NCBI GenBank assembly: GCA_016926735.1
Contig: JAFGOA010000223.1
Span: 31,276 to 95,275 of the forward strand
DNA from: Promethearchaeota archaeon
Lineage (GTDB): Archaea > Asgardarchaeota > Lokiarchaeia > Sigyniarchaeales > SOKP01
Reading direction: 5' to 3'
DNA: 64,000 nt
The notes beneath the pieces were generated by a model that saw nothing but the letters and a program-made list of their open reading frames with translations, was not told the DNA's origin and ran no database searches. The position numbers and the translations under genes are program-made. Positions within the stretch are counted from its first letter, which is position 1, and every line of letters begins with the position of its first letter. Below are positions 1,958 through 28,234 of this stretch, one piece after another.

Positions 1958-2055
1958 TTTTTGAAAGTTTAAGATTTTTTTTTAGGTATTTTATTCTAAT
2001 TTGATATAATTTAAAGAGGGAAAAATAGGACCCGGAGCGGGAATTGAACCCGCGT

Positions 2056-2084
2056 TTCCTCAGCATAAGAATAATCTTAAACTT
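2056..2084 (-). other. tRNA-His intron 2 (29 nt, variable loop), BHB type
   Basis: 4-bp helix CCTT/GAGG (one T.G). 3-nt bulges AGA and AAA. 9-position inner helix AGTTTAAGA/TCTTATGCT with one T.T mismatch and loop TTAT. Excision leaves a 4-nt variable loop AGAC. Confidence 0.7.
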
Positions 2085-2114
2085 CTAAGGATTCACAGTC
2101 CCCAATACTAACCA

Positions 2115-2144
2115 TTATACAAATTACAGTAGAACTGGAATTTT
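2115..2144 (-). other. tRNA-His intron 1 (30 nt, D-loop, between nt 15 and 16), BHB type
   Basis: 4-bp helix GTAT/GTAT (2 A-U plus 2 G.U). 3-nt bulges AGA and AAT. Inner hairpin AAATT-C-CAG/CTG-T-AATTT. Excision gives the canonical D-loop AGTGGTTA. Confidence 0.75.
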
Positions 2145-2488
2145 CTATACAATCCGGGTCATAAATAACAATAATATTATCTAATTTATATTTCTAAAAA
2201 AATTTTAGCTTTTAATAAGCAATTTGATCAATGATATTATGATTTTTGTTTTAAAATAATTTAAAAAGATATAAATAAGAATTTTAGAGATTTTAGAATG
2301 TATTTAAGCTCTTGAAAAAATTAAAATTAAGGATAAGAAGTCTGGAAGATTTATTTCATTCTAAATACTAAACAATATGTTTTTAAGTTAATTATTTTAA
2401 ATATTATTAAGTCAAACTAATAAATTTTTAATTTTTATTCTGATTTAATCCTAATTAGAATATAGAAGATCTTGGAAATTTGATTGAT

Positions 2489-2899
2489 ATGGCTGAAAAG
2501 AATAATCTAGATGATATCCCTGAAAGTTATCAAAGATATCTGGATGAGATATATACAATCGCAAGTAAAAAAAGAGGTGGTTGGGTGACAAATAAAGAAA
2601 TTGCTTTAAGTTTAGGTGTTGAGCCCGCTAGTGTTTCTGGTATGTTAGAAAAATTAAAAGAAAATAATTTAATTAATTGGGAGCCAAGAAAAGCAATCCG
2701 TCTTTCAAAAAAAGGAAAAGAAATTGCTATGCAACTCAATGAAAATCATCAACTATTGCTACTCTTTTTTAAGAAAGTCTTAAAATTAAAAGATAATCTT
2801 ACGATTGATGCCTTAGCTTGCCAAATTGAGCATCATATTTCACAAGATGTTAAAGAATCATTAAAGATATTTTTGGATAAATATTTAAATCAAAATTAA
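2489..2899 (+). CDS. DtxR/MntR-family metal-dependent transcriptional repressor
   Basis: N-terminal winged HTH (TNKEIALSLGVEPASVSGMLEKLKENNLI) followed by a dimerisation helix region. ATG at 2489 is preferred over the TTG at 2480 in the ORF track. Confidence 0.8.
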   Translation: MAEKNNLDDIPESYQRYLDEIYTIASKKRGGWVTNKEIALSLGVEPASVSGMLEKLKENNLINWEPRKAIRLSKKGKEIAMQLNENHQLLLLFFKKVLKLKDNLTIDALACQIEHHISQDVKESLKIFLDKYLNQN

Positions 2900-4277: not shown

Positions 4278-5327
4278 ATGAAAGTCGCAAAATACTATAA
4301 TAATAAAGATGTAAGAATAGAGCAAATTTCAAAACCTACTATTAATCCAGATGAATTTTTAGTAAAAATAAGAAAATCTGGTATTTGTGGTTCTGATATT
4401 CTTGAATATTATCGTTTTGCAAAAATGAAGAAACTTGGTGTAGATAATCTTATATTAGGGCATGAAATAGCTGGGGATATTGTAGAAATTGGAAATAACG
4501 TAAAAGAATTTAAGATTGGAGATCGAGTATTCGTATCTCATCATGTACCATGTTTTAATTGTCATTTTTGTAAACAAGGTCATCATACAGCATGTCATTT
4601 ATTGCATAATACAAACTTTGACCCTGGTGGATTCTCAGAGTATGTTAGAATTCCTTCTATTAATATTGAGAAAAAAGGTGTATATGTCTTTAATGAAAGT
4701 ATGTCGTATGAAGATGGTGTTATGTTGGAACCATTAGCTTGTGTATGCAGAGCTCAGAGACTTGCAAATATAAAAGAGGGACAGACTATTTTGATTCTAG
4801 GAAGTGGTGTATCTGGTATACTGCATCTTAAATTAGCAAAAATGAAAGGAGCAGCTAAAGTAATAATGACAGATATTAGTGAGAATCGATTAAAACAAGC
4901 TCAGAAATATGGCGCTAATGAAATAATTAATGCTAATGAAGATATATTCTCTATTATAAAAAATCTTAATGAAGATCGAATGCCCGATTCTATAATAGTA
5001 TGTACAGGAGCACTAACAGCCGCTAATCAAGCGCTTAAATGTGTCGGAGCAGGATCCACCATCTTATTTTTTGCCGTACCAAAACCGGGTATAAACCTTG
5101 ACATCCCAATTAATGATTATTGGAGAAATGAAGTGATCATTATGACCTCCTATGGTGCAGCGCCCCCAGATTTGGATGAAGCATATGAATTAATTTCAAA
5201 TAAAAAAATAAATGTCAGTGATATTATTTCACATCGTTTTCCTTTAAATAAAGTTCAAGAAGCATTTAATATGGTATGTAATGCCGATAATTCATTAAAA
5301 GTGATTATAGATTTTGATATGAAATAA
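4278..5327 (+). CDS. zinc-dependent alcohol/polyol dehydrogenase (MDR superfamily, threonine/sorbitol dehydrogenase-like)
   Basis: GICGSD, GHEIAGDIVEIG, structural-zinc Cys cluster (CFNCHFCKQGHHTAC) and Rossmann GSGVSG. Confidence 0.85.
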   Translation: MKVAKYYNNKDVRIEQISKPTINPDEFLVKIRKSGICGSDILEYYRFAKMKKLGVDNLILGHEIAGDIVEIGNNVKEFKIGDRVFVSHHVPCFNCHFCKQGHHTACHLLHNTNFDPGGFSEYVRIPSINIEKKGVYVFNESMSYEDGVMLEPLACVCRAQRLANIKEGQTILILGSGVSGILHLKLAKMKGAAKVIMTDISENRLKQAQKYGANEIINANEDIFSIIKNLNEDRMPDSIIVCTGALTAANQALKCVGAGSTILFFAVPKPGINLDIPINDYWRNEVIIMTSYGAAPPDLDEAYELISNKKINVSDIISHRFPLNKVQEAFNMVCNADNSLKVIIDFDMK

Positions 5328-21717: not shown

Positions 21718-21731
21718 TTAGGCATGCCTAA
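21718..21731. promoter_or_regulatory. perfect 14-bp palindrome TTAGGCATGCCTAA upstream of feoA; candidate metalloregulator operator
   Basis: The only GC-containing palindrome in the AT-rich feoA-feoA spacer, 57-70 nt upstream of the feoA start at 21661. It has TTAGG/CCTAA arms like DtxR-type boxes. Confidence 0.45.
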
Positions 21732-22211: not shown

Positions 22212-22456
22212 TTTATTCTTATATAGAAAAAGTTTTTTCTTCTCTATGTATTGTTAATCATACTTGGTATTTAAATTATTAGTGTTTCCTAAATATAATA
22301 TATTAATTCTTTTCCTTATAAAAGATAAACTGAAATAAATAAATATATTTGATTTTTAAAAAGAAATAATAAAAATCTTAAGAATAATATTGTTATTTTA
22401 TTTAATTTGATAATATTTTGAATAATTATTTAAAAATTACTCCTTTTTTTCTCTTA

Positions 22457-22470
22457 TGAATAATTATTCA
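22457..22470. promoter_or_regulatory. palindromic box TGAATAATTATTCA (member of the ATGAATA-N-TATTCAT set)
   Basis: Perfect 14-bp palindrome in the feoA/DUF5320 divergent spacer. Confidence 0.45.
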
Positions 22471-22638
22471 GAAAAATAAAATAATAATGTTCATAATCTT
22501 GGATTATTAAATTTATTAATTTTAACACATAAAACTAGCAATAGCTATAAATAATTCTTAAATGATAAATTCAACATTGTATTCTTATCAATTTAATATC
22601 CGTATGAGGATATTTCATATTTTGAATTCTTTTTTATT

Positions 22639-22654
22639 ATGAATATATATTCAT
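22639..22654. promoter_or_regulatory. palindromic box ATGAATATATATTCAT
   Basis: Perfect 16-bp palindrome, 61-76 nt upstream of the DUF5320 start (22715). Confidence 0.5.
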
Positions 22655-22714
22655 AAAACTTAAATATCATTATATCTATTAATAACATAATAAATAAAAA
22701 AAGTGATTATAAAA

Positions 22715-23080
22715 ATGCCAAGTGGAGATGGAACTGGTCCAAATGGTTTTGGACCAAGAACTGGAAGGGCGTTAGGATATTGTGCCGGATATAATGTACC
22801 TGGATATCTTAGGGGTCCTGGAAGAGGAGGTTTTAATAGAGGATTAGGCTTTGGAAGAAACTTTTATGGAAGGCGATTTGATTATCCCTTTCATAGAGGA
22901 GATCTATTAACTCCTATAAATCCAATTAATAATATAGGACTTAATTCAGAGATCACTCCTGAATCTAAAATAGCTATTTTAAATAGAGAAAAAGAATATT
23001 TGGAGTCAGAAATGGAAAATCTTAAGACAATTATTGGTAATATTGAAAAAAATATCACTCAAATTAAAAAACAAGAATAA
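22715..23080 (+). CDS. DUF5320-family protein
   Basis: MPSGDGTGPNGFGPRTGRALGYCAGY... is a Gly/Arg-rich N-terminus, followed by a C-terminal coiled coil, as in DUF5320. ATG at 22715. Confidence 0.65.
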   Translation: MPSGDGTGPNGFGPRTGRALGYCAGYNVPGYLRGPGRGGFNRGLGFGRNFYGRRFDYPFHRGDLLTPINPINNIGLNSEITPESKIAILNREKEYLESEMENLKTIIGNIEKNITQIKKQE

Positions 23081-23109
23081 TTTATTTTATTTTTTATTTA
23101 ATTTTAAAA

Positions 23110-23565
23110 TTAAAGAGAATTTACTTTAGATATATTTTTTTTATATTTTTTTATTGTATCTTTTAGAGCGTTTATAGCTAATTCTGCACAATGTTTATGA
23201 TCTTTTGGTAAGCCTTTAAGTGATTGATCGATATGTATAGTTTTTAATGATTCTATATCTTCTAGTGGTTTTCCTCGAGCCATAATGGTTGTTTGACTTC
23301 CTGCTGCAACTAATGCACCACATCCATCTGTAATAAAAGTTATGTCTTTAATTATGTTTTCTTCTATTTTTATAAAATATTTTATTGATTCTCCGCATTT
23401 TCCTTTATAATTATTTTTTACACTTAAATTATGCTCCTCCAATTTTCCCCAATTCTTGGGATTATGAAATAATTCTACGATATATTCATTAAATTCTTCA
23501 ATTTCTTTTGCAATTATTTCTTTCTGAAGCTCCTCTATAAATCTATCAAATTCTTTATTTGACAT
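23110..23565 (-). CDS. IscU/NifU N-terminal-like Fe-S scaffold protein
   Basis: Three conserved Cys contexts (GKCGESI, TDGCGALVAAGS, HCAELA). Confidence 0.8.
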   Translation of the reverse strand: MSNKEFDRFIEELQKEIIAKEIEEFNEYIVELFHNPKNWGKLEEHNLSVKNNYKGKCGESIKYFIKIEENIIKDITFITDGCGALVAAGSQTTIMARGKPLEDIESLKTIHIDQSLKGLPKDHKHCAELAINALKDTIKKYKKNISKVNSL

Positions 23566-23593
23566 TTTATAAACTCTAAAGTGTTCTTAATAA

Positions 23594-24466
23594 CTACTTT
23601 TCCAATAAATTTTGAATTTTATCTACTATTTGTTTAAATGATGTTGCACTTTCATTATCTGTGTTATTAATTACAAAAGGTAAGCCTTGATCTCCTTGAA
23701 GACTTACTTCAACCTCGAAAGGTATTTTCCCTAAAAGAGGTATATTAAAATCCTTAGCTGCCTTTTCCGCACCACCTGGAGGATAAAGATTAATATATTC
23801 ATTACAATGTGGACATTGAAATCCGGACATATTTTCAATAATTCCTAAAACATGTCTCTTCATAATCTGAGCCATCTTAATGGTTTTTCGAGCATCCATC
23901 AAAGCAACTTCTTGAGGTGTTGTAACAATAATCACATTTTCATCCGGAATAAGTTGTAATATATCCAATGTTTCATCAGATGTACCTGGGGGTAGATCAC
24001 ATATAAGAAAGTCTAATTCTCCCCATAAAGCATCTCCTAGAAATTGTCTTACAGCCCCCATTTTCATAGGACCTCTCCAAATTACTGGTGAATCAGAATT
24101 ATCTATAAGAAAAGCCATACTCATTACTTTGGTATTAAGTGGACCATCTATAGGATAAAATTTTTTTAATTCTTCATTTATTCTTGGTTTTTTACTAGAA
24201 TCAATTCCTAGCATTTTATTTACATTCGGACCAGTTATATCTACATCTAATAGTCCTACTCGAAGGCCTATACTTGCGAGACTCATTGCTAAATTTACGG
24301 ATACTGTTGTTTTACCGACCCCTCCCTTACCTGAAATAACAACGATTTTATGTTTTATCTTTGCCATGTTATTTTTTATATTATCTGTCGTTTCATCCAT
24401 TTTTTCTTTTTTAGCTTGTTTTATAGTATCTTTAAGATTAATATCTTCGATTTTTTCATCTTTCAT
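23594..24466 (-). CDS. Mrp/NBP35/ApbC-family Fe-S cluster carrier ATPase
   Basis: Deviant Walker A ISGKGGVGKTT, DLPPGTSD, and the CPHC motif. Confidence 0.9.
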   Translation of the reverse strand: MKDEKIEDINLKDTIKQAKKEKMDETTDNIKNNMAKIKHKIVVISGKGGVGKTTVSVNLAMSLASIGLRVGLLDVDITGPNVNKMLGIDSSKKPRINEELKKFYPIDGPLNTKVMSMAFLIDNSDSPVIWRGPMKMGAVRQFLGDALWGELDFLICDLPPGTSDETLDILQLIPDENVIIVTTPQEVALMDARKTIKMAQIMKRHVLGIIENMSGFQCPHCNEYINLYPPGGAEKAAKDFNIPLLGKIPFEVEVSLQGDQGLPFVINNTDNESATSFKQIVDKIQNLLEK

Positions 24467-24557
24467 ATGGTTTCACTTTAATTCTAATTTTTTTCCTTTT
24501 TCAATCTTTTTTTTTATTATTTAGATTAAATTTAAATATTTTAATAAGTTTATTATT

Positions 24558-24573
24558 ATGAATAAATATTCAT
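24558..24573. promoter_or_regulatory. palindromic box ATGAATAAATATTCAT (one mismatch)
   Basis: Lies in the divergent spacer between mrp (start 24466, minus) and the NifX-like gene (start 24618, plus). Confidence 0.5.
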
Positions 24574-24617
24574 AAAAAAGAATAAAAAAAATACAAATAA
24601 AAATAGTTGATTAAGAA

Positions 24618-25025
24618 ATGGTTATTATAGCAATACCTTCGATGAATGATGGTGGATTAAATGATTTTCTAAATCCACGATTTGGGAGATGTCCTTGTTT
24701 TACATTTATTGAACTAGAAAATAAAGAAGTTACAGCGGTGAAGATTATAAATAATGTTGCTACTAATTCAATGGGGGGCGCAGGAATACAAGCGGCACAA
24801 ATTGTTGGAGAAAATAAAGCGGATACAGTTATTATAAATTTCTTGGGTCCTAATGCAATCCAAGCACTTAAATCTTTTAATATTAAAATCTTTGAGCTTA
24901 GAAACGATAAAATTTCCATAAAAGATGTTCTAGATCTATATAATAAGGGGGAATTAGCAGAGATAAATGCTTCAAATGTTAATTCTCATTTTGGAACTAA
25001 TAAAAATATAACTAATCCGAATTAA
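24618..25025 (+). CDS. NifX/NifB-C-terminal-like (dinitrogenase FeMo-cofactor-binding fold) protein
   Basis: IAIPS...L...FGRCPCFTFIE...GGAG...ADTVI...GPNA is the pattern of the DUF269/NifX-like family. Confidence 0.8.
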   Translation: MVIIAIPSMNDGGLNDFLNPRFGRCPCFTFIELENKEVTAVKIINNVATNSMGGAGIQAAQIVGENKADTVIINFLGPNAIQALKSFNIKIFELRNDKISIKDVLDLYNKGELAEINASNVNSHFGTNKNITNPN

Positions 25026-25071
25026 ATTATTAAAAAATTAATTTTATACATATTTTAATAAAAGCTTTAAA

Positions 25072-25986
25072 ATGTCAAAAAATCTTAAAATTATTTGTGT
25101 AACTGGAGGAAAAGGTGGTACTGGAAAAACTTTAGTCGCCGTTAATTTAGCAGTGATGTTAAAAAATCAAGGTAATAAAATACTGCTTATTGATGGAGAT
25201 GTTGAAAATCCTAACACTCACTTATTATTAAATAGGGAATTATTAAATGATAAACCCGTATATATGTTCAAACCAAAAATTTCAGAACATTTATGCTATA
25301 AATGTGGAACATGTGCTGAAAATTGCTCTGCTCATGCATTATTATACATAACAAATTCTGTTCCTATTCCAATGCTTACTGTGTGCTCTGGATGTAAATT
25401 ATGTTATAAAATTTGTCCTTCAAATGCTATTGAGGAAGATTATAAAATAATTGGATGGACTTATTACTCCACCAAGGATAATCTTTCTCTTATGGTTGGT
25501 GAATTAAAACCATCTGAGGCTCGTTCTGCTGCAATCATTGAAGCATTATTTAAACGAATGGAAGATATTCAACAAAACAATATAGAAGATTTTGATTTTA
25601 TTATTTTTGATAGTGCTCCTGGAGCTCATTGTGATGTTGAATTATTAATAAATAAAGCCGATATCATCATTCCAGTTACTGAACCAACGAAATTCGGTGA
25701 ATTAGATTTAATGCGAATAATAGAATTAATTAATCTTTTGGAAAAAGAATACCAAATCATAATTAATCGATCAACTTTACCTGGGTATAAAGATGTATTT
25801 TTAAAGAAATTAAATGACAAAAATATTAACATTCTTGGTGAAATACCTTTCGATGAAGATATTGTACTATCTTATTGTCAAGGTATCCCTCTAATGAGTG
25901 AAGAAAGCATATTTAATACAAAAAATGAAGGATATTTATCATTTCAAACAATATTTAAAAATTTATTAAGTTGGATAAATAGTTAA
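25072..25986 (+). CDS. MinD/ParA-superfamily P-loop ATPase with inserted 2x[4Fe-4S] ferredoxin domain
   Basis: TGGKGGTGKT deviant Walker A. CYKCGTCAENC and CSGCKLCYKICP ferredoxin motifs. DSAPGAHC. Confidence 0.85.
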   Translation: MSKNLKIICVTGGKGGTGKTLVAVNLAVMLKNQGNKILLIDGDVENPNTHLLLNRELLNDKPVYMFKPKISEHLCYKCGTCAENCSAHALLYITNSVPIPMLTVCSGCKLCYKICPSNAIEEDYKIIGWTYYSTKDNLSLMVGELKPSEARSAAIIEALFKRMEDIQQNNIEDFDFIIFDSAPGAHCDVELLINKADIIIPVTEPTKFGELDLMRIIELINLLEKEYQIIINRSTLPGYKDVFLKKLNDKNINILGEIPFDEDIVLSYCQGIPLMSEESIFNTKNEGYLSFQTIFKNLLSWINS

Positions 25987-25999
25987 CTGGGAATGAATA

Positions 26000-26926
26000 A
26001 TGAAAAACAAGAAAGTTGGAGTTATTTCTGGTAAGGGAGGGGTCGGTAAAACCTCACTTGTAGCTTCATTAGCATATTTGACTGAGAATGATAGAGATAT
26101 CAATTCTATTGTTATTGATTGTGATGTCGATGCACCTAATTTAGCTCTGATTTTATCACCAAGTCCAAATAATAATCTAAAAAGAAAAGATGTATATTCA
26201 ACCTTAAAGGCTTCATTTCAAAAAGAAAAATGCACACAATGTAAACGCTGTATTGATGATCATTTTTGTGAATTTAATGCTTTAAGTTGGGATTTTGATA
26301 ACAACATCCCATTGATTGATTATCTTTCATGTGAAGGATGTGGTGCCTGCAAATTATTGTGTCAAGGATATGCTTTTGAAATAAATCCTGTTAAAAGTGG
26401 TGAAATTATTTACTATATTTCAGATATTGGTATACCTATTGTTTATGGTAAAACAAGATTAGGAAGTACAACCTCTGGAAAACTAGTTACAGAATGTAAA
26501 TCTTACATTGAAAAATTAGATGGTTTAGAAAAAATAAATCTAATTATAATTGATGGTCCTCCTGGAATTGGCTGTCCTGTTATTGCAACTATATCAGGAT
26601 TAGATTATCTAATTATTGTCACTGAACCAACACCCTCAGGATTACACGACCTTAAGAGAACTATCGAACTAGTTCAAAATTTTAAAATTCCTTTTGGAAT
26701 TGTGATAAATAAATTTAATATTGATACTCCTTTTCAAGTTGAGTTTAAAAAATATTTTAATGAAACAGGTTTTGATATTATTGGTAAAATTCCTTTTGAT
26801 TTAACAATACCTGAAGCTATGTCATATGCAAAACCAGTTATTGAATTTAATCATGAATCTGAAGCAAGTAAAGCTATTAAAAATATATATACACAAATAA
26901 AGAATATTTTATGGAACGGAAAATAA
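26000..26926 (+). CDS. MinD/ParA-superfamily P-loop ATPase with inserted ferredoxin domain (paralog)
   Basis: SGKGGVGKTS, CTQCKRCIDDHFC, CEGCGACKLLC, DGPPGIGC. Confidence 0.85.
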   Translation: MKNKKVGVISGKGGVGKTSLVASLAYLTENDRDINSIVIDCDVDAPNLALILSPSPNNNLKRKDVYSTLKASFQKEKCTQCKRCIDDHFCEFNALSWDFDNNIPLIDYLSCEGCGACKLLCQGYAFEINPVKSGEIIYYISDIGIPIVYGKTRLGSTTSGKLVTECKSYIEKLDGLEKINLIIIDGPPGIGCPVIATISGLDYLIIVTEPTPSGLHDLKRTIELVQNFKIPFGIVINKFNIDTPFQVEFKKYFNETGFDIIGKIPFDLTIPEAMSYAKPVIEFNHESEASKAIKNIYTQIKNILWNGK

Positions 26927-26962
26927 TTAATTTATTTATTTTAAAAATCTCTATCTTTAAAA

Positions 26963-27382
26963 TTAAATTTGTTCTCTAACAAAGAAATATACATTTTTTG
27001 AATTGCAATTCACACAATTAATTTTCTTATCTTTTGAAGCAGAAACATCTTCCCATTCATGATTACAATCAATACAACCATAACCAATGAATTTTACTTT
27101 ATAGTCGAAAGTACCTCCAAAAATTTTTATATTTTTTCCTTCAATGAGAGCTTGGGTTGTTTTCTGATGAGCACTTTCGAGAATACGTGAGAAGGTTGGT
27201 TGACTAATACCCATCTCGTCAGCAGCTGTTTTTTGATCTAAATTTAAATAATGTTTTAATCTCATAGATTCGAATTCTGAGATTGTCAAAATAATAGATT
27301 CTTCAAAAGAGGGATCTTCACTTGCAAAATAGAAATTATTGGGTGTTTCTCTTACCCATCTTCTTCTTTTTCTTCTCCCCAT
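26963..27382 (-). CDS. DUF134 (UPF0251) predicted DNA-binding protein with C-terminal zinc ribbon
   Basis: GRRKRRRWV..., sigma-70-region-4-like HTH (LDQKTAADEMGISQPTFSRILESA), and C-terminal CIDC..CVNC. Confidence 0.75.
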   Translation of the reverse strand: MGRRKRRRWVRETPNNFYFASEDPSFEESIILTISEFESMRLKHYLNLDQKTAADEMGISQPTFSRILESAHQKTTQALIEGKNIKIFGGTFDYKVKFIGYGCIDCNHEWEDVSASKDKKINCVNCNSKNVYFFVREQI

Positions 27383-27405
27383 ATTTAATCAATTGAAATC
27401 TTGAT

Positions 27406-27415
27406 GAATTAATTC
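27406..27415. promoter_or_regulatory. short-spacer variant palindrome GAATTAATTC upstream of the DUF134 gene
   Basis: Occurs in the context TGATGAATTAATTCTT, 24-33 nt upstream of the start at 27382. It shares the TGAAT/ATTC half-sites. Confidence 0.3.
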
Positions 27416-27496
27416 TTTTAAAAAAACTAATTATCTTTTAATTATTAAAACTAATTATAACAATAAATTTATTCCTATTTTTCTGATATCATAATT

Positions 27497-27856
27497 TTAG
27501 TGATGACAACTTGGTCCTTCTAATTTGTCCAATTTATCACTAAGAAGTAACTCTATATTTTCTTTTACAGTTTTCTCAGATATTCCTTGATAAAGATTAA
27601 TTCCTACTTGAATAAATCCCATATAAGGTCTACCTCCAATCCCTCCAATAATCATATCAGTTACATCTCTATCTTTCATATTCAAAACAGGTTCCATACA
27701 ACTTGAATGACCTTTATTTTGTAGTAAAAATGCAATCTCACCAATGTGATTATCATTGGTGTTGATCCCAATAAAAAAATTACAATGACCAAAATGATCA
27801 GACATAACATCATCTATTTTTGAACCATCTGAAGGAATAGCTATTATTCTTTTCAT
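27497..27856 (-). CDS. NifX/NifB-C-terminal-like protein
   Basis: IAIPSDG...HFGHCNFFIGI...GGIGGRP; same family as 24618..25025. Confidence 0.8.
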   Translation of the reverse strand: MKRIIAIPSDGSKIDDVMSDHFGHCNFFIGINTNDNHIGEIAFLLQNKGHSSCMEPVLNMKDRDVTDMIIGGIGGRPYMGFIQVGINLYQGISEKTVKENIELLLSDKLDKLEGPSCHH

Positions 27857-27877
27857 TTTTACCTTACCTTTTTATTT

Positions 27878-27893
27878 ATGAATAATTATTCAT
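27878..27893. promoter_or_regulatory. palindromic box ATGAATAATTATTCAT
   Basis: Perfect 16-bp palindrome, 22-37 nt upstream of the NifX-like start at 27856 (minus). Confidence 0.5.
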
Positions 27894-27970
27894 TTTATAT
27901 AAATTTACATATATACAAATCTTCCTGGTTAGAAAAATATATAATATTTAAAAAAAATTACATCATTATA

Positions 27971-28234
27971 ATGGATTTTTTACATGCTTTATTATTTTTA
28001 TTTATAATTTTGTATTTTTCTTATGTTATAAAAGCTAACTACTTTTACCTTGTTTTTATAGCAGTTGTTTTCTTATTTTTTTTTATTTCTCTATTATTTT
28101 TAGAGCCAATGCAATTTATAAATGCTATAGTAAATCAGATAATTTTAACACCTTGGGGATTGATTATCTTAATTATTTTGGGTATTTTGTTGATATTCAC
28201 TTCAAAACTAAAAAAAAAAGTTGAATATAAGTAA
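27971..28234 (+). CDS. possible small membrane protein
   Basis: 87 aa counted from the internal ATG, with three hydrophobic stretches. The 5' part of track ORF 27878..28234 overlaps the operator palindrome and is probably not coding. Confidence 0.35.
   Translation: MDFLHALLFLFIILYFSYVIKANYFYLVFIAVVFLFFFISLLFLEPMQFINAIVNQIILTPWGLIILIILGILLIFTSKLKKKVEYK

Follow-up and report, generated by a model that had tools for sequence, protein, structure and literature searches.

Small, autoregulated helix-turn-helix (HTH) repressors with cysteine ligands, such as IscR, SufR, RirA and NsrR, control genes for iron-sulphur (Fe-S) scaffolds and carriers such as IscU and Mrp-like proteins. Another arrangement is known from Desulfovibrio, in which the orange protein (ORP) complex includes the MinD-ferredoxin ATPases Orp3 and Orp4, the Di-Nase/nifX-like Orp8 and the Fe-S carrier MrpORP (PMC6345978). 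The activator of the orp operons is OrpR. This sigma-54 enhancer-binding protein, equipped with a PAS-[4Fe-4S] redox sensor, binds GGGCGYRTTTTGCGCCC and has been described as restricted to deltaproteobacteria, and the ORP system has been suggested to be possibly of archaeal origin (PMC8359166). DNA-binding domains of B. subtilis DeoR dimerise via the strand after the HTH, one DNA turn apart (PMC11229326), and the left half-operator OL18 in the dra-nupC-pdp operator, ATTGAACAAAATTTCAAT, reads TGAA-N6-TTCA (PDB 7bhy, 8r7y; PMC11229326). In archaea, chromatin immunoprecipitation sequencing (ChIP-seq) of TroR, a DtxR-family protein of Haloferax volcanii, yielded the motif TTTAGGC-NNN-CCTAAA (PMC10783522). 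Here we analyse a palindrome with the core TGAAT-N4-ATTCA that recurs at the promoters of an island of ORP-like metallocluster genes in a 64-kb stretch of DNA from a Promethearchaeota archaeon (contig JAFGOA010000223.1; G+C content 26.8%), which we refer to as the window. Our comparisons point to this palindrome, TTATGAATAATTATTCATAA, as the probable operator of a DUF134/zinc-ribbon protein encoded within the island itself, a reading to which we assign a probability of roughly 80%.

The initial annotation of the window had listed four near-identical palindromes, and all four are present at the positions given there. The 14-mer TGAATANNTATTCA occurs at 22457, 22640, 24559 and 27879, in each case within the island, and a count of four was reached in none of 2000 dinucleotide-preserving shuffles of the window (mean 0.0575, maximum 1). 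The 16-mer ATGAATANNTATTCAT is present in three copies against 0.0065 expected. When up to two mismatches were allowed, the window held seven copies against 4.0 expected, which is not significant, and the signal therefore resides in the near-perfect copies. A position weight matrix that was built without the window, on 212 sites taken from other genomes, scored 27.4 bits at 24559, 26.1 at 22457, 25.2 at 22640 and 24.8 at 27879, and additionally returned a fifth, degenerate site at 22419 (17.1 bits) that was missing from the original list. The next-best match in the window reached only 8.3 bits; the remaining intergenic regions thus lack the motif, in agreement with the earlier remark that the full motif had not been noticed there. 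The sites are of the TGAAtannTAtTTCA type, reading TGAA-N6-TTCA, and lie as follows:

22419 to 22432: weak site S0, TGAATAATTATTTA, with one arm degenerate and one mismatch to the 14-mer core, 38 bp from S1.
22454 to 22473: site S1, TTATGAATAATTATTCAGAA, between the divergent feoA and DUF5320 genes, with about 252 bp to either start codon; its 16-mer ATGAATAATTATTCAG (22456-22471) has an exact 14-mer core and one mismatch at the 16-mer level.
22637 to 22656: site S2, TTATGAATATATATTCATAA, with its centre 68.5 bp 5' of the DUF5320 start codon (22715); 16-mer ATGAATATATATTCAT at 22639-22654.
24556 to 24575: site S3, TTATGAATAAATATTCATAA, in a divergent spacer, 52.5 bp from nifX-like 1 (24618, plus strand) and 99.5 bp from mrp (24466, minus strand); 16-mer ATGAATAAATATTCAT at 24558-24573.
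27876 to 27895: site S4, TTATGAATAATTATTCATTT, with its centre 29.5 bp 5' of nifX-like 2 (27856, minus strand); 16-mer ATGAATAATTATTCAT at 27878-27893.

The assignments made from the letters alone for the genes around these sites were confirmed by Pfam, which returned DUF5320, NifU_N, Mrp/NUBPL ParA, two Nitro_FeMo-Co, two MinD-ferredoxin and DUF134 with a zinc ribbon. They are arranged as follows, with feoA, feoA and feoB adjoining the island:

22715 to 23080, plus strand: DUF5320, proposed target (Pfam).
23110 to 24466, minus strand: mrp-iscU operon, proposed target (Pfam, synteny), with mrp at 23594-24466 (like the MrpORP P-loop domain) and iscU/NifU_N at 23110-23565.
24618 to 26926, plus strand: nifX-like 1 operon, proposed target (Pfam, synteny), with nifX-like 1 at 24618-25025 and two MinD-ferredoxin genes at 25072-25986 and 26000-26926, whose products are Orp3/Orp4-like.
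26963 to 27382, minus strand: DUF134 protein of 139 amino acids, proposed regulator (Pfam PF02001).
27497 to 27856, minus strand: nifX-like 2 (Nitro_FeMo-Co/Di-Nase domain, Orp8-like), proposed target (Pfam).

Every transcription unit of the island had been described as covered by a palindrome. This holds for the divergent nifX-like 1/mrp pair, for DUF5320 and for nifX-like 2; the 114-bp spacer directly upstream of DUF134 carries no site, and in the window the DUF134 gene is probably reached from S4 via co-transcription with nifX-like 2. A short-spacer variant, GAATTAATTC, had been counted at this position (27406-27415) and is indeed there. However, it gives no matrix match and is kept only in a 98%-identical relative (L001), not in four further relatives with the nifX-DUF134 arrangement in common (L002, L011, L017 and L020), and we rejected it as an operator. 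Motifs of the form GAAT-N0-6-ATTC occur 31 times in the window, and GAATTAATTC is best read as a chance occurrence.

The proposed regulator belongs to DUF134/UPF0251: the PF02001 hidden Markov model matches residues 2-93 with 70.8 bits (gathering cut-off 27, E=1.5e-19), and an identical protein, from a Candidatus Lokiarchaeota MAG (metagenome-assembled genome), is named 'DUF134 domain-containing protein' at NCBI. The family is widespread, with 7161 clusters matched by one consensus-like bacterial query, and homologs that are 57-98% identical are present in MAGs of Loki-, Hod-, Thor- and Hermodarchaeota. In 31 Asgard homologs, C103, C106, C123, C126 and the helix SQPTFSR are invariant. The AlphaFold model consists of a three-helix sigma-70-region-4/DeoR-like HTH (residues ~34-81), a beta-strand (84-87) and a Cys4 zinc ribbon (98-136). 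Full-text literature searches returned nothing on the function or binding sites of DUF134/UPF0251/COG1342/PF02001, on DUF5320 or on the operator strings.

Phylogenetic footprinting in relatives that carry the same island had been suggested as a check, and the palindrome is found at the orthologous promoters of 46 other Asgard loci. These loci (group A, 698 kb in total), in which DUF134 lies inside an island as in the window, come from a scan of species-representative genomes with the DUF134 protein, from which 80 Asgard loci were kept; in another 32 (group B), DUF134 lies elsewhere, without the island genes and without a DtxR gene, and no MAG among the 80 loci falls into both groups. The exact 14-mer is present in 128 copies in the 80 loci, nearly always at matching places, and the G and the C in the arms of the 20-bp matrix consensus TTATGAATAATTATTCATAA are conserved to 98%. 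Sites precede a nifX-like gene in 46 of 47 loci; the spacer ahead of mrp/MinD has one in 36 of 40, and that ahead of DUF5320 in 28 of 29 Asgard loci. More specifically, the palindrome is located between nifX-like and DUF134, or, as the window shows, 5' of both genes; in the spacer that separates the nifX-MinD-MinD operon from the mrp-iscU-radical-SAM operon, where the divergent arrangement of nifX and mrp-iscU around the site is conserved; in two copies 5' of DUF5320; in one to three copies 5' of a nifX-OsmC-ferredoxin operon with a divergent small Cys-rich gene; and 5' of a carbon monoxide dehydrogenase (CODH)-type (Prismane) gene. The layout of S4, with the site ahead of nifX-like and DUF134, recurs in L001, L002, L011, L017 and L020, whereas in most other loci the site sits directly between the two genes. 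Specificity for the island is equally marked, since 216 of 217 group A matches of at least 15 bits adjoin island gene families. Among promoter-bearing spacers of group A and the window, matches are present in 148 of 347 headed by island genes and in 1 of 200 headed by other genes (Fisher p=1e-34), and because of this difference the objection that the initial annotation had raised against itself, namely that the motif might be common at unrelated AT-rich promoters, fails.

The placement of the sites is also constrained. The distance from the centre of a site to the start codon is 59-64 bp for nifX; for DUF5320 there are two distances, 31 and 92 bp, as there are for the small Cys-rich gene, 37 and 98 bp. 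Of 63 spacings between neighbours, 47 measure 60-62 bp (Asgard loci L002-L060). This distance equals six helical turns and thus puts tandem sites on the same face of the DNA, which suggests same-face cooperative binding, bridging of two dimers, or DNA wrapping. S1 and S2 of the window are separated by 183 bp (3 x 61), and the close relative L002 has the matching two-site layout with 179 bp.

The motif follows DUF134 out of the island. Strong sites are absent from the 32 group B loci, in which DUF134 is flanked by an aminotransferase-like gene and a gene for a 4Fe-4S protein; the best matrix match of the whole locus (up to 20 kb) nevertheless lies within 120 bp 5' of DUF134 in 25 of the 32, where 0.3 would be expected. 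These matches are weaker versions with one good arm, for example TGAATAATTATT, and are separated from the start codon by 27-70 bp. For bacteria, 80 metagenome loci were fetched on the basis of an alignment of family clusters, and 76 of them, with a G+C content of 0.39-0.68, had enough upstream sequence. A strict regular expression, ATGNNNANNTNNNCAT, found just 30 of 77 sites and undercounted those of the GAC/GTT type; it was therefore abandoned for mismatch scoring against the degenerate consensus TTATGRRCATATGYYCATAA, with at most four mismatches within 130 bp 5' of DUF134. Scored in this way, 67 of the 76 loci carry a palindrome, compared to 3 of 1363 control windows. The bacterial palindrome, TTATG-N10-CATAA, has the same outer arms as its Asgard counterpart and differs in the inner triplet only. 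Moreover, 51 of the 67 loci have a TTGACA-like -35 box whose first base is 31-32 bp ahead of the palindrome, from which it follows that the palindrome starts 2-3 bp after the -10 box and spans about -5 to +15, with the inferred transcription start in its left arm. As predicted from these promoters, the palindrome thus takes the classical position of a repressor site. The operon that follows shares DUF5320, nifX-like, two MinD-ferredoxin genes and Mrp with the Asgard island and also includes DUF364/DUF4213 and a HypA-like zinc ribbon. In Thermosediminibacter litoriperuensis (L082), three TTATGAACA-type half-sites lie at the Prismane and DUF134 promoters. Four ATGAACA/TGTTCAT heptamers occur within 14 kb, of which three (at 4625, 6928 and 6965) fall in the Prismane/CODH-type and DUF134 promoter regions, one in overlap with a TTGACA -35 box; this single case is anecdotal and only suggestive, but consistent with an operator.

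Several features of these other contexts may be recorded here. Group B loci (L040, L044-L080) have one to three 4Fe-4S/Cys-rich protein genes beside DUF134 and a family B DNA polymerase-like gene close by, and homologs of their aminotransferase-like and Fe-S families are present in the window, unlinked to DUF134. In five of them (L063, L065, L073, L075 and L079), ATTAGGTATTACTAAGGGG is conserved between DUF134 and the next 4Fe-4S gene, about 21 bp before the latter; it resembles a DtxR box and overlaps the ribosome-binding site. The contig of L071 (DATKTW010000074.1) is labelled 'Candidatus Nanopelagicaceae bacterium' and carries a typical Asgard group B locus, syntenic with L066 and L069, and is probably mis-binned. 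Bacterial DUF134 operons (L105, 3157-9042; others in L087-L166) add genes for DUF364/DUF4213 ('putative heavy-metal chelation'), HypA-like, Zn_ribbon_8 and methyltransferase proteins to those for nifX-like, MinD-ferredoxin, DUF5320 and Mrp, and five of them (L121, L122, L138, L162 and L166) include a Fur-family gene.

A more direct link between the palindrome and the DUF134 protein comes from their co-variation. Across the bacterial loci, the identity of residue x in S-R-P-T-F-x-R, a motif of the recognition helix, changes with the inner triplet of the operator: proteins with Q at this position go with AGC/GGC (59 of 60 half-sites), those with H with GAC/AAC (44 of 48), and those with A with GTC/GAC. 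The mutual information amounts to 1.155 bits, a statistic that is inflated by sequence kinship, and was reached in none of 5000 shuffles, whose maximum was 0.376. Asgard proteins combine SQPTFSR with the inner triplet AAT, which suggested that R or Q at the second position of the helix motif pairs with C or T at operator position 8. On this basis, T-type sites were predicted for two short SQPT proteins of DPANN type before their contigs were fetched, and were then found as TTATGAATATATATTCAATA and TAATGAATTAGTATTCATAA (also written TAATGAATTA(G/T)TATTCATAA), 5' of a DUF5320-DUF134 operon and directly after a TTTAAATA box. A Nanoarchaeota locus agrees with the SQPT/T pairing. The co-variation, as seen in these alignments, is the pattern expected if DUF134 reads the operator directly.

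The DeoR comparison points in the same direction. A profile of the Asgard DUF134 proteins identified the DNA-binding domain of B. subtilis DeoR (7bhy) as the best solved relative (E=1.6e-4), with ISRPTVSRLL in DeoR and VSQPTFSRIL in DUF134 as recognition helices. In Foldseek, the DUF134 HTH superimposed on 7bhy with a root-mean-square deviation of 0.7 A over 41 residues (34-35% identity, probability 1.00); sigma-70 region 4 domains matched too. The DUF134 HTH is thus predicted to work like the DeoR DNA-binding domain.

Taken together, the site is, on these comparisons, real, conserved and specific to the promoters of the island, and it tracks DUF134 across archaea and bacteria with co-variation. 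That palindrome and DUF134 protein form a regulator-operator pair, as proposed in the initial annotation, is thus supported by the conservation among Asgard loci, by group B, by the bacterial loci, by the co-variation and by the likeness to DeoR. We propose that a DUF134 dimer would place two sigma-70-region-4/DeoR-like recognition helices in successive major grooves, where they would read the TGAA...TTCA half-sites one helical turn apart. With the sites overlapping or abutting core promoters, binding would block the core promoter and repress four units, namely nifX-like 1 with the two MinD-ferredoxin genes, mrp-iscU, DUF5320, and nifX-like 2 with DUF134; co-transcription of the last two genes would make DUF134 autoregulated, while feoAB would be under a separate, DtxR-type operator. 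We infer that binding is dimeric, that it represses rather than activates, and that nifX-like 2 and DUF134 are co-transcribed. The promoter geometry bears on this scheme: the DPANN-type sites follow a TATA box, S4 is flanked upstream, just past its gene-distal side, by TTTATATA and downstream by the start codon, and many of the divergent spacers in Asgard loci have only one site, about 56-60 bp away from either start codon, at the place expected for a TATA box common to both genes. At S4, a 118-amino-acid open reading frame (27878-28234, plus strand) also takes its start ATG from the palindrome; since the homolog in L003 starts at an internal Met (around 27971 in the window), this small hydrophobic protein probably begins there, with the palindrome about 85 bp upstream.

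A number of observations weigh against this reading. The case for DUF134 as the binding protein is drawn from sequence throughout, and the loci are phylogenetically related, so that the counts and the co-variation statistic exceed the number of independent events. No palindrome was found by our scoring in 9 of the 76 bacterial loci, nor in the Desulfolucanica locus L083, in which DUF134 lies beside folate genes. With no site in the DUF134 gene's own spacer, autoregulation in the window depends on co-transcription with nifX-like 2, and the start codons nearest to S0 and S1 are about 215-290 bp away. TATA-like octamers showed no sharp positional peak 5' of 718 genes in loci of 27-36% GC; TATA boxes are accordingly not reliably placed, and at the Asgard sites DUF134 would be either a repressor, as proposed here, or an activator. 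Confidence in the DUF134 model is moderate (predicted local distance difference test, pLDDT, 76; predicted template modelling score, pTM, 0.48). Finally, the short DPANN-type DUF134 proteins are without the C-terminal Cys module, although the N-terminal Cys (xCRRV) is kept, and the module is therefore no universal sensor.

Since the link from DUF134 to the DNA is computational rather than experimental, the palindrome might be bound by another factor, either DUF5320 or a regulator encoded elsewhere in the genome, with DUF134 merely co-regulated. DUF5320, a Gly/Arg-rich protein with a coiled coil, is the most constant partner of DUF134 and adjoins it in bacteria and DPANN-type archaea as well as in Asgard loci. 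However, it has no recognisable DNA-binding fold (PF17253 only) and is absent from the 32 group B loci, where the motif still precedes DUF134; in addition, the operator bases co-vary with recognition-helix residues of DUF134, whose HTH resembles one that binds TGAA-N6-TTCA, and we consider this explanation unlikely. The AT-rich core, AATAATTATT, is TATA-like, and this, together with the single sites midway between divergent start codons described above, would fit a general promoter element of an AT-rich archaeon, that is, a symmetric TATA/B-recognition element (BRE) of bidirectional promoters. The site may overlap the TATA box, though it is not generic: the single match among 200 promoter spacers of unrelated genes, the lack of any in the rest of the window, the conserved G and C of the arms and the recurrence of the motif in bacteria of 39-68% GC downstream of sigma-70 -10 boxes make such an element highly improbable. 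The hypothesis that the palindromes act as RNA or DNA hairpins, for example as terminators, stem-loops in 5' untranslated regions or remnants of mobile-element inverted repeats, takes its appeal from the fact that perfect inverted repeats can fold, with bacterial versions reaching -5.8 to -8.8 kcal/mol as RNA and commonly showing a G-U-compatible asymmetry (GGAC...GTTC). The window sites, by contrast, fold at only -1.5 to -4.1 kcal/mol, with A+T-rich stems that contain a single G-C pair and with no T-run; they lie 5' of genes in divergent spacers, tandem copies are phased at 61 bp, the inferred transcription start in bacteria falls inside the left arm, and no flanking repeat or transposase pattern was seen. 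Of all the readings considered, we regard this one as the least probable.

A metalloregulator of the DtxR/MntR type deserves separate discussion, because the palindrome could be its operator and the island an ordinary iron/manganese regulon. A gene of this family (Fe_dep_repress), a second possible regulator that the initial annotation had missed, lies behind DUF5320 in 31 relatives and is conserved in their islands downstream of two palindromes, and the regulon is iron-related in content with feoAB adjacent. However, a distinct conserved palindrome is found at feoA, including both feoA genes of the window:

21718 to 21731: perfect DtxR/TroR-type box TTAGGCATGCCTAA, no DUF134 site, 63 bp 5' of feoA (start 21661, minus strand); marks the end of the DUF134 regulon.
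22279 to 22292: DtxR-type box TTAGTGTTTCCTAA, no DUF134 site, 74 bp 5' of feoA (start 22211, minus strand).

This sequence, TTAGG-N4-CCTAA, matches the TroR motif and occurs 47-86 bp 5' of feoA in nearly all feoA-bearing Asgard loci, usually just before a TTTAAATA box; its count in the window is not above chance (2 against 2.6 expected), so that position and conservation carry the weight. The four TGAAT palindromes do not match it, and the TGAAT sites of the feoA/DUF5320 spacer are DUF5320-proximal, 214-367 bp from feoA. The TGAAT palindrome is also found 5' of DUF134 in Asgard, DPANN-type and bacterial loci with no DtxR gene nearby, and it co-varies with the DUF134 helix. We therefore rejected the DtxR/MntR-like protein, which has its own classical boxes at feoA, as the binder, a role that we find even less probable than that of a general promoter element; with an operator of its own at feoA, feoAB would form its unit, separate from the DUF134 regulon. 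In the window, a DtxR/MntR-like gene at 2480-2899 (plus strand; NCBIfam MntR, E=2e-16) is unlinked to the island, and neither type of palindrome was found 5' of it. In the 31 relatives, the corresponding gene lies in an operon 3' of DUF134-type palindromes, which would make a regulator cascade. Elsewhere in the window, there is a borderline Rfam tRNA match at 2037-2120 (minus strand; 29.4 bits, 84 nt) that was not called by ARAGORN and may be an intron-containing archaeal tRNA.

If DUF134 is the regulator, its targets give some indication of what it responds to. Matched by domain family, the target genes are homologs of the Desulfovibrio ORP metallocluster genes, and Pfam returned both the ORP domain families and a divergent operon layout for the island; the window Mrp scores 330 bits on the NCBIfam MrpORP model, below the cut-off of 450, and its match is limited to the P-loop part, positions 1-251 of the 365 in the profile. 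Control of the island by OrpR was rejected, given that the motif GGGCGYRTTTTGCGCCC has no match in the window at up to three mismatches and that Pfam detected no sigma-54 activator domain among the island proteins. With OrpR described as restricted to deltaproteobacteria and its motif absent here, DUF134 may regulate ORP-like clusters elsewhere. As to the signal, we speculate that DUF134 might respond to a redox, Fe-S or metal cue via its C-terminal module, which is Cys4 in Asgard archaea and Cys/His in bacteria. This is plausible because of the regulon content (IscU, Mrp, ferredoxins and CODH, with ZIP or feo nearby), the invariant Asgard cysteines and the homologous bacterial motif C..(C)GHEWE..CPxC; in alignments, the metal-binding module (window residues 98-131) reads GYGCxxCxxEWED...CxxC in Asgard proteins and FxCxx(C)GHEWE...CPxC in bacterial ones.

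In its widest form, which we offer tentatively and would not put at even odds, the hypothesis would be that DUF134 is a large bacterial and archaeal family of autoregulated repressors that act as master regulators of ORP-type clusters (nifX-like, MinD-ferredoxin, DUF5320 and Mrp) in most non-deltaproteobacterial anaerobes, including Asgard and DPANN archaea, and that sense redox, Fe-S or metal status via the Cys/His module or DUF5320. The simple recognition code that forms part of this wider hypothesis, and that we hold just as tentatively, would relate helix residue x of S-(R/Q)-P-T-F-x-R to operator bases 6-8 of TTATG-NNN-A..T-NNN-CATAA. Once DUF134, a family of unknown function, is credited with an operator, a conserved regulon and a layout for autoregulation, it would become a testable transcription factor; this would give Asgard archaea one of their first predicted specific regulons and link the poorly understood ORP-like clusters of anaerobes to a regulator other than the deltaproteobacterial OrpR. 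Moreover, the relation of one helix residue to the inner operator bases could provide a small natural system for the evolution of HTH specificity and for site prediction in new genomes.

Finally, the mechanism proposed here, an autoregulated HTH repressor with a palindromic operator, is conventional, and its parts can be set beside the known systems; what appears to be new is that the family is given an assignment, an operator and a regulon conserved in bacteria as well as archaea, together with the recognition co-variation. Like DtxR-family boxes, the DUF134 sites are palindromes near the core promoters of metal-related genes, and boxes of the DtxR type lie directly beside the DUF134 regulon, at feoA. 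They differ in sequence (TTAGG-N4-CCTAA versus TGAAT-N4-ATTCA), and DtxR-family proteins combine a winged helix with a metal-binding dimerisation domain and have feoAB as their targets. IscR, SufR, RirA and NsrR resemble the predicted regulator in size, autoregulation, Cys ligands and target genes, but they come from unrelated families (Rrf2, ArsR-like), and the Cys4 module of DUF134 has a zinc-ribbon fold and no sign of cluster binding. With DeoR, DUF134 would share the half-site TGAA/TTCA with identical spacing in the island palindromes, a modelled strand at the place of the strand by which DeoR dimerises, and, as predicted for DUF134, an autoregulated system of the repressor type with paired sites. 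In contrast to DeoR, it is without the SorC sugar-phosphate effector domain (a double Rossmann, tetramerising domain, for which no match was found in the 139-residue protein, whose residues 98-136 are the zinc ribbon) and has an N-terminal basic stretch and the C-terminal Cys4 zinc ribbon instead. The missing SorC domain places DUF134 outside the SorC/DeoR family; its proposed targets are metallocluster genes rather than those of nucleoside catabolism, and its tandem sites are 61 bp apart as opposed to about 21 bp in DeoR. A parallel in gene families is that to the orp operons of Desulfovibrio vulgaris, with which the island has in common, by domain family, MinD-type ATPases with two ferredoxin motifs, a Di-Nase/NifX-like protein and an Mrp/NBP35 carrier. 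In both, the operons diverge from a palindromic regulator site, and the cluster includes the regulator gene. OrpR differs in kind from the regulator proposed here, a small HTH protein that probably acts as a repressor, would recognise an unrelated AT-rich operator and is found in archaea and in many non-deltaproteobacterial anaerobes.

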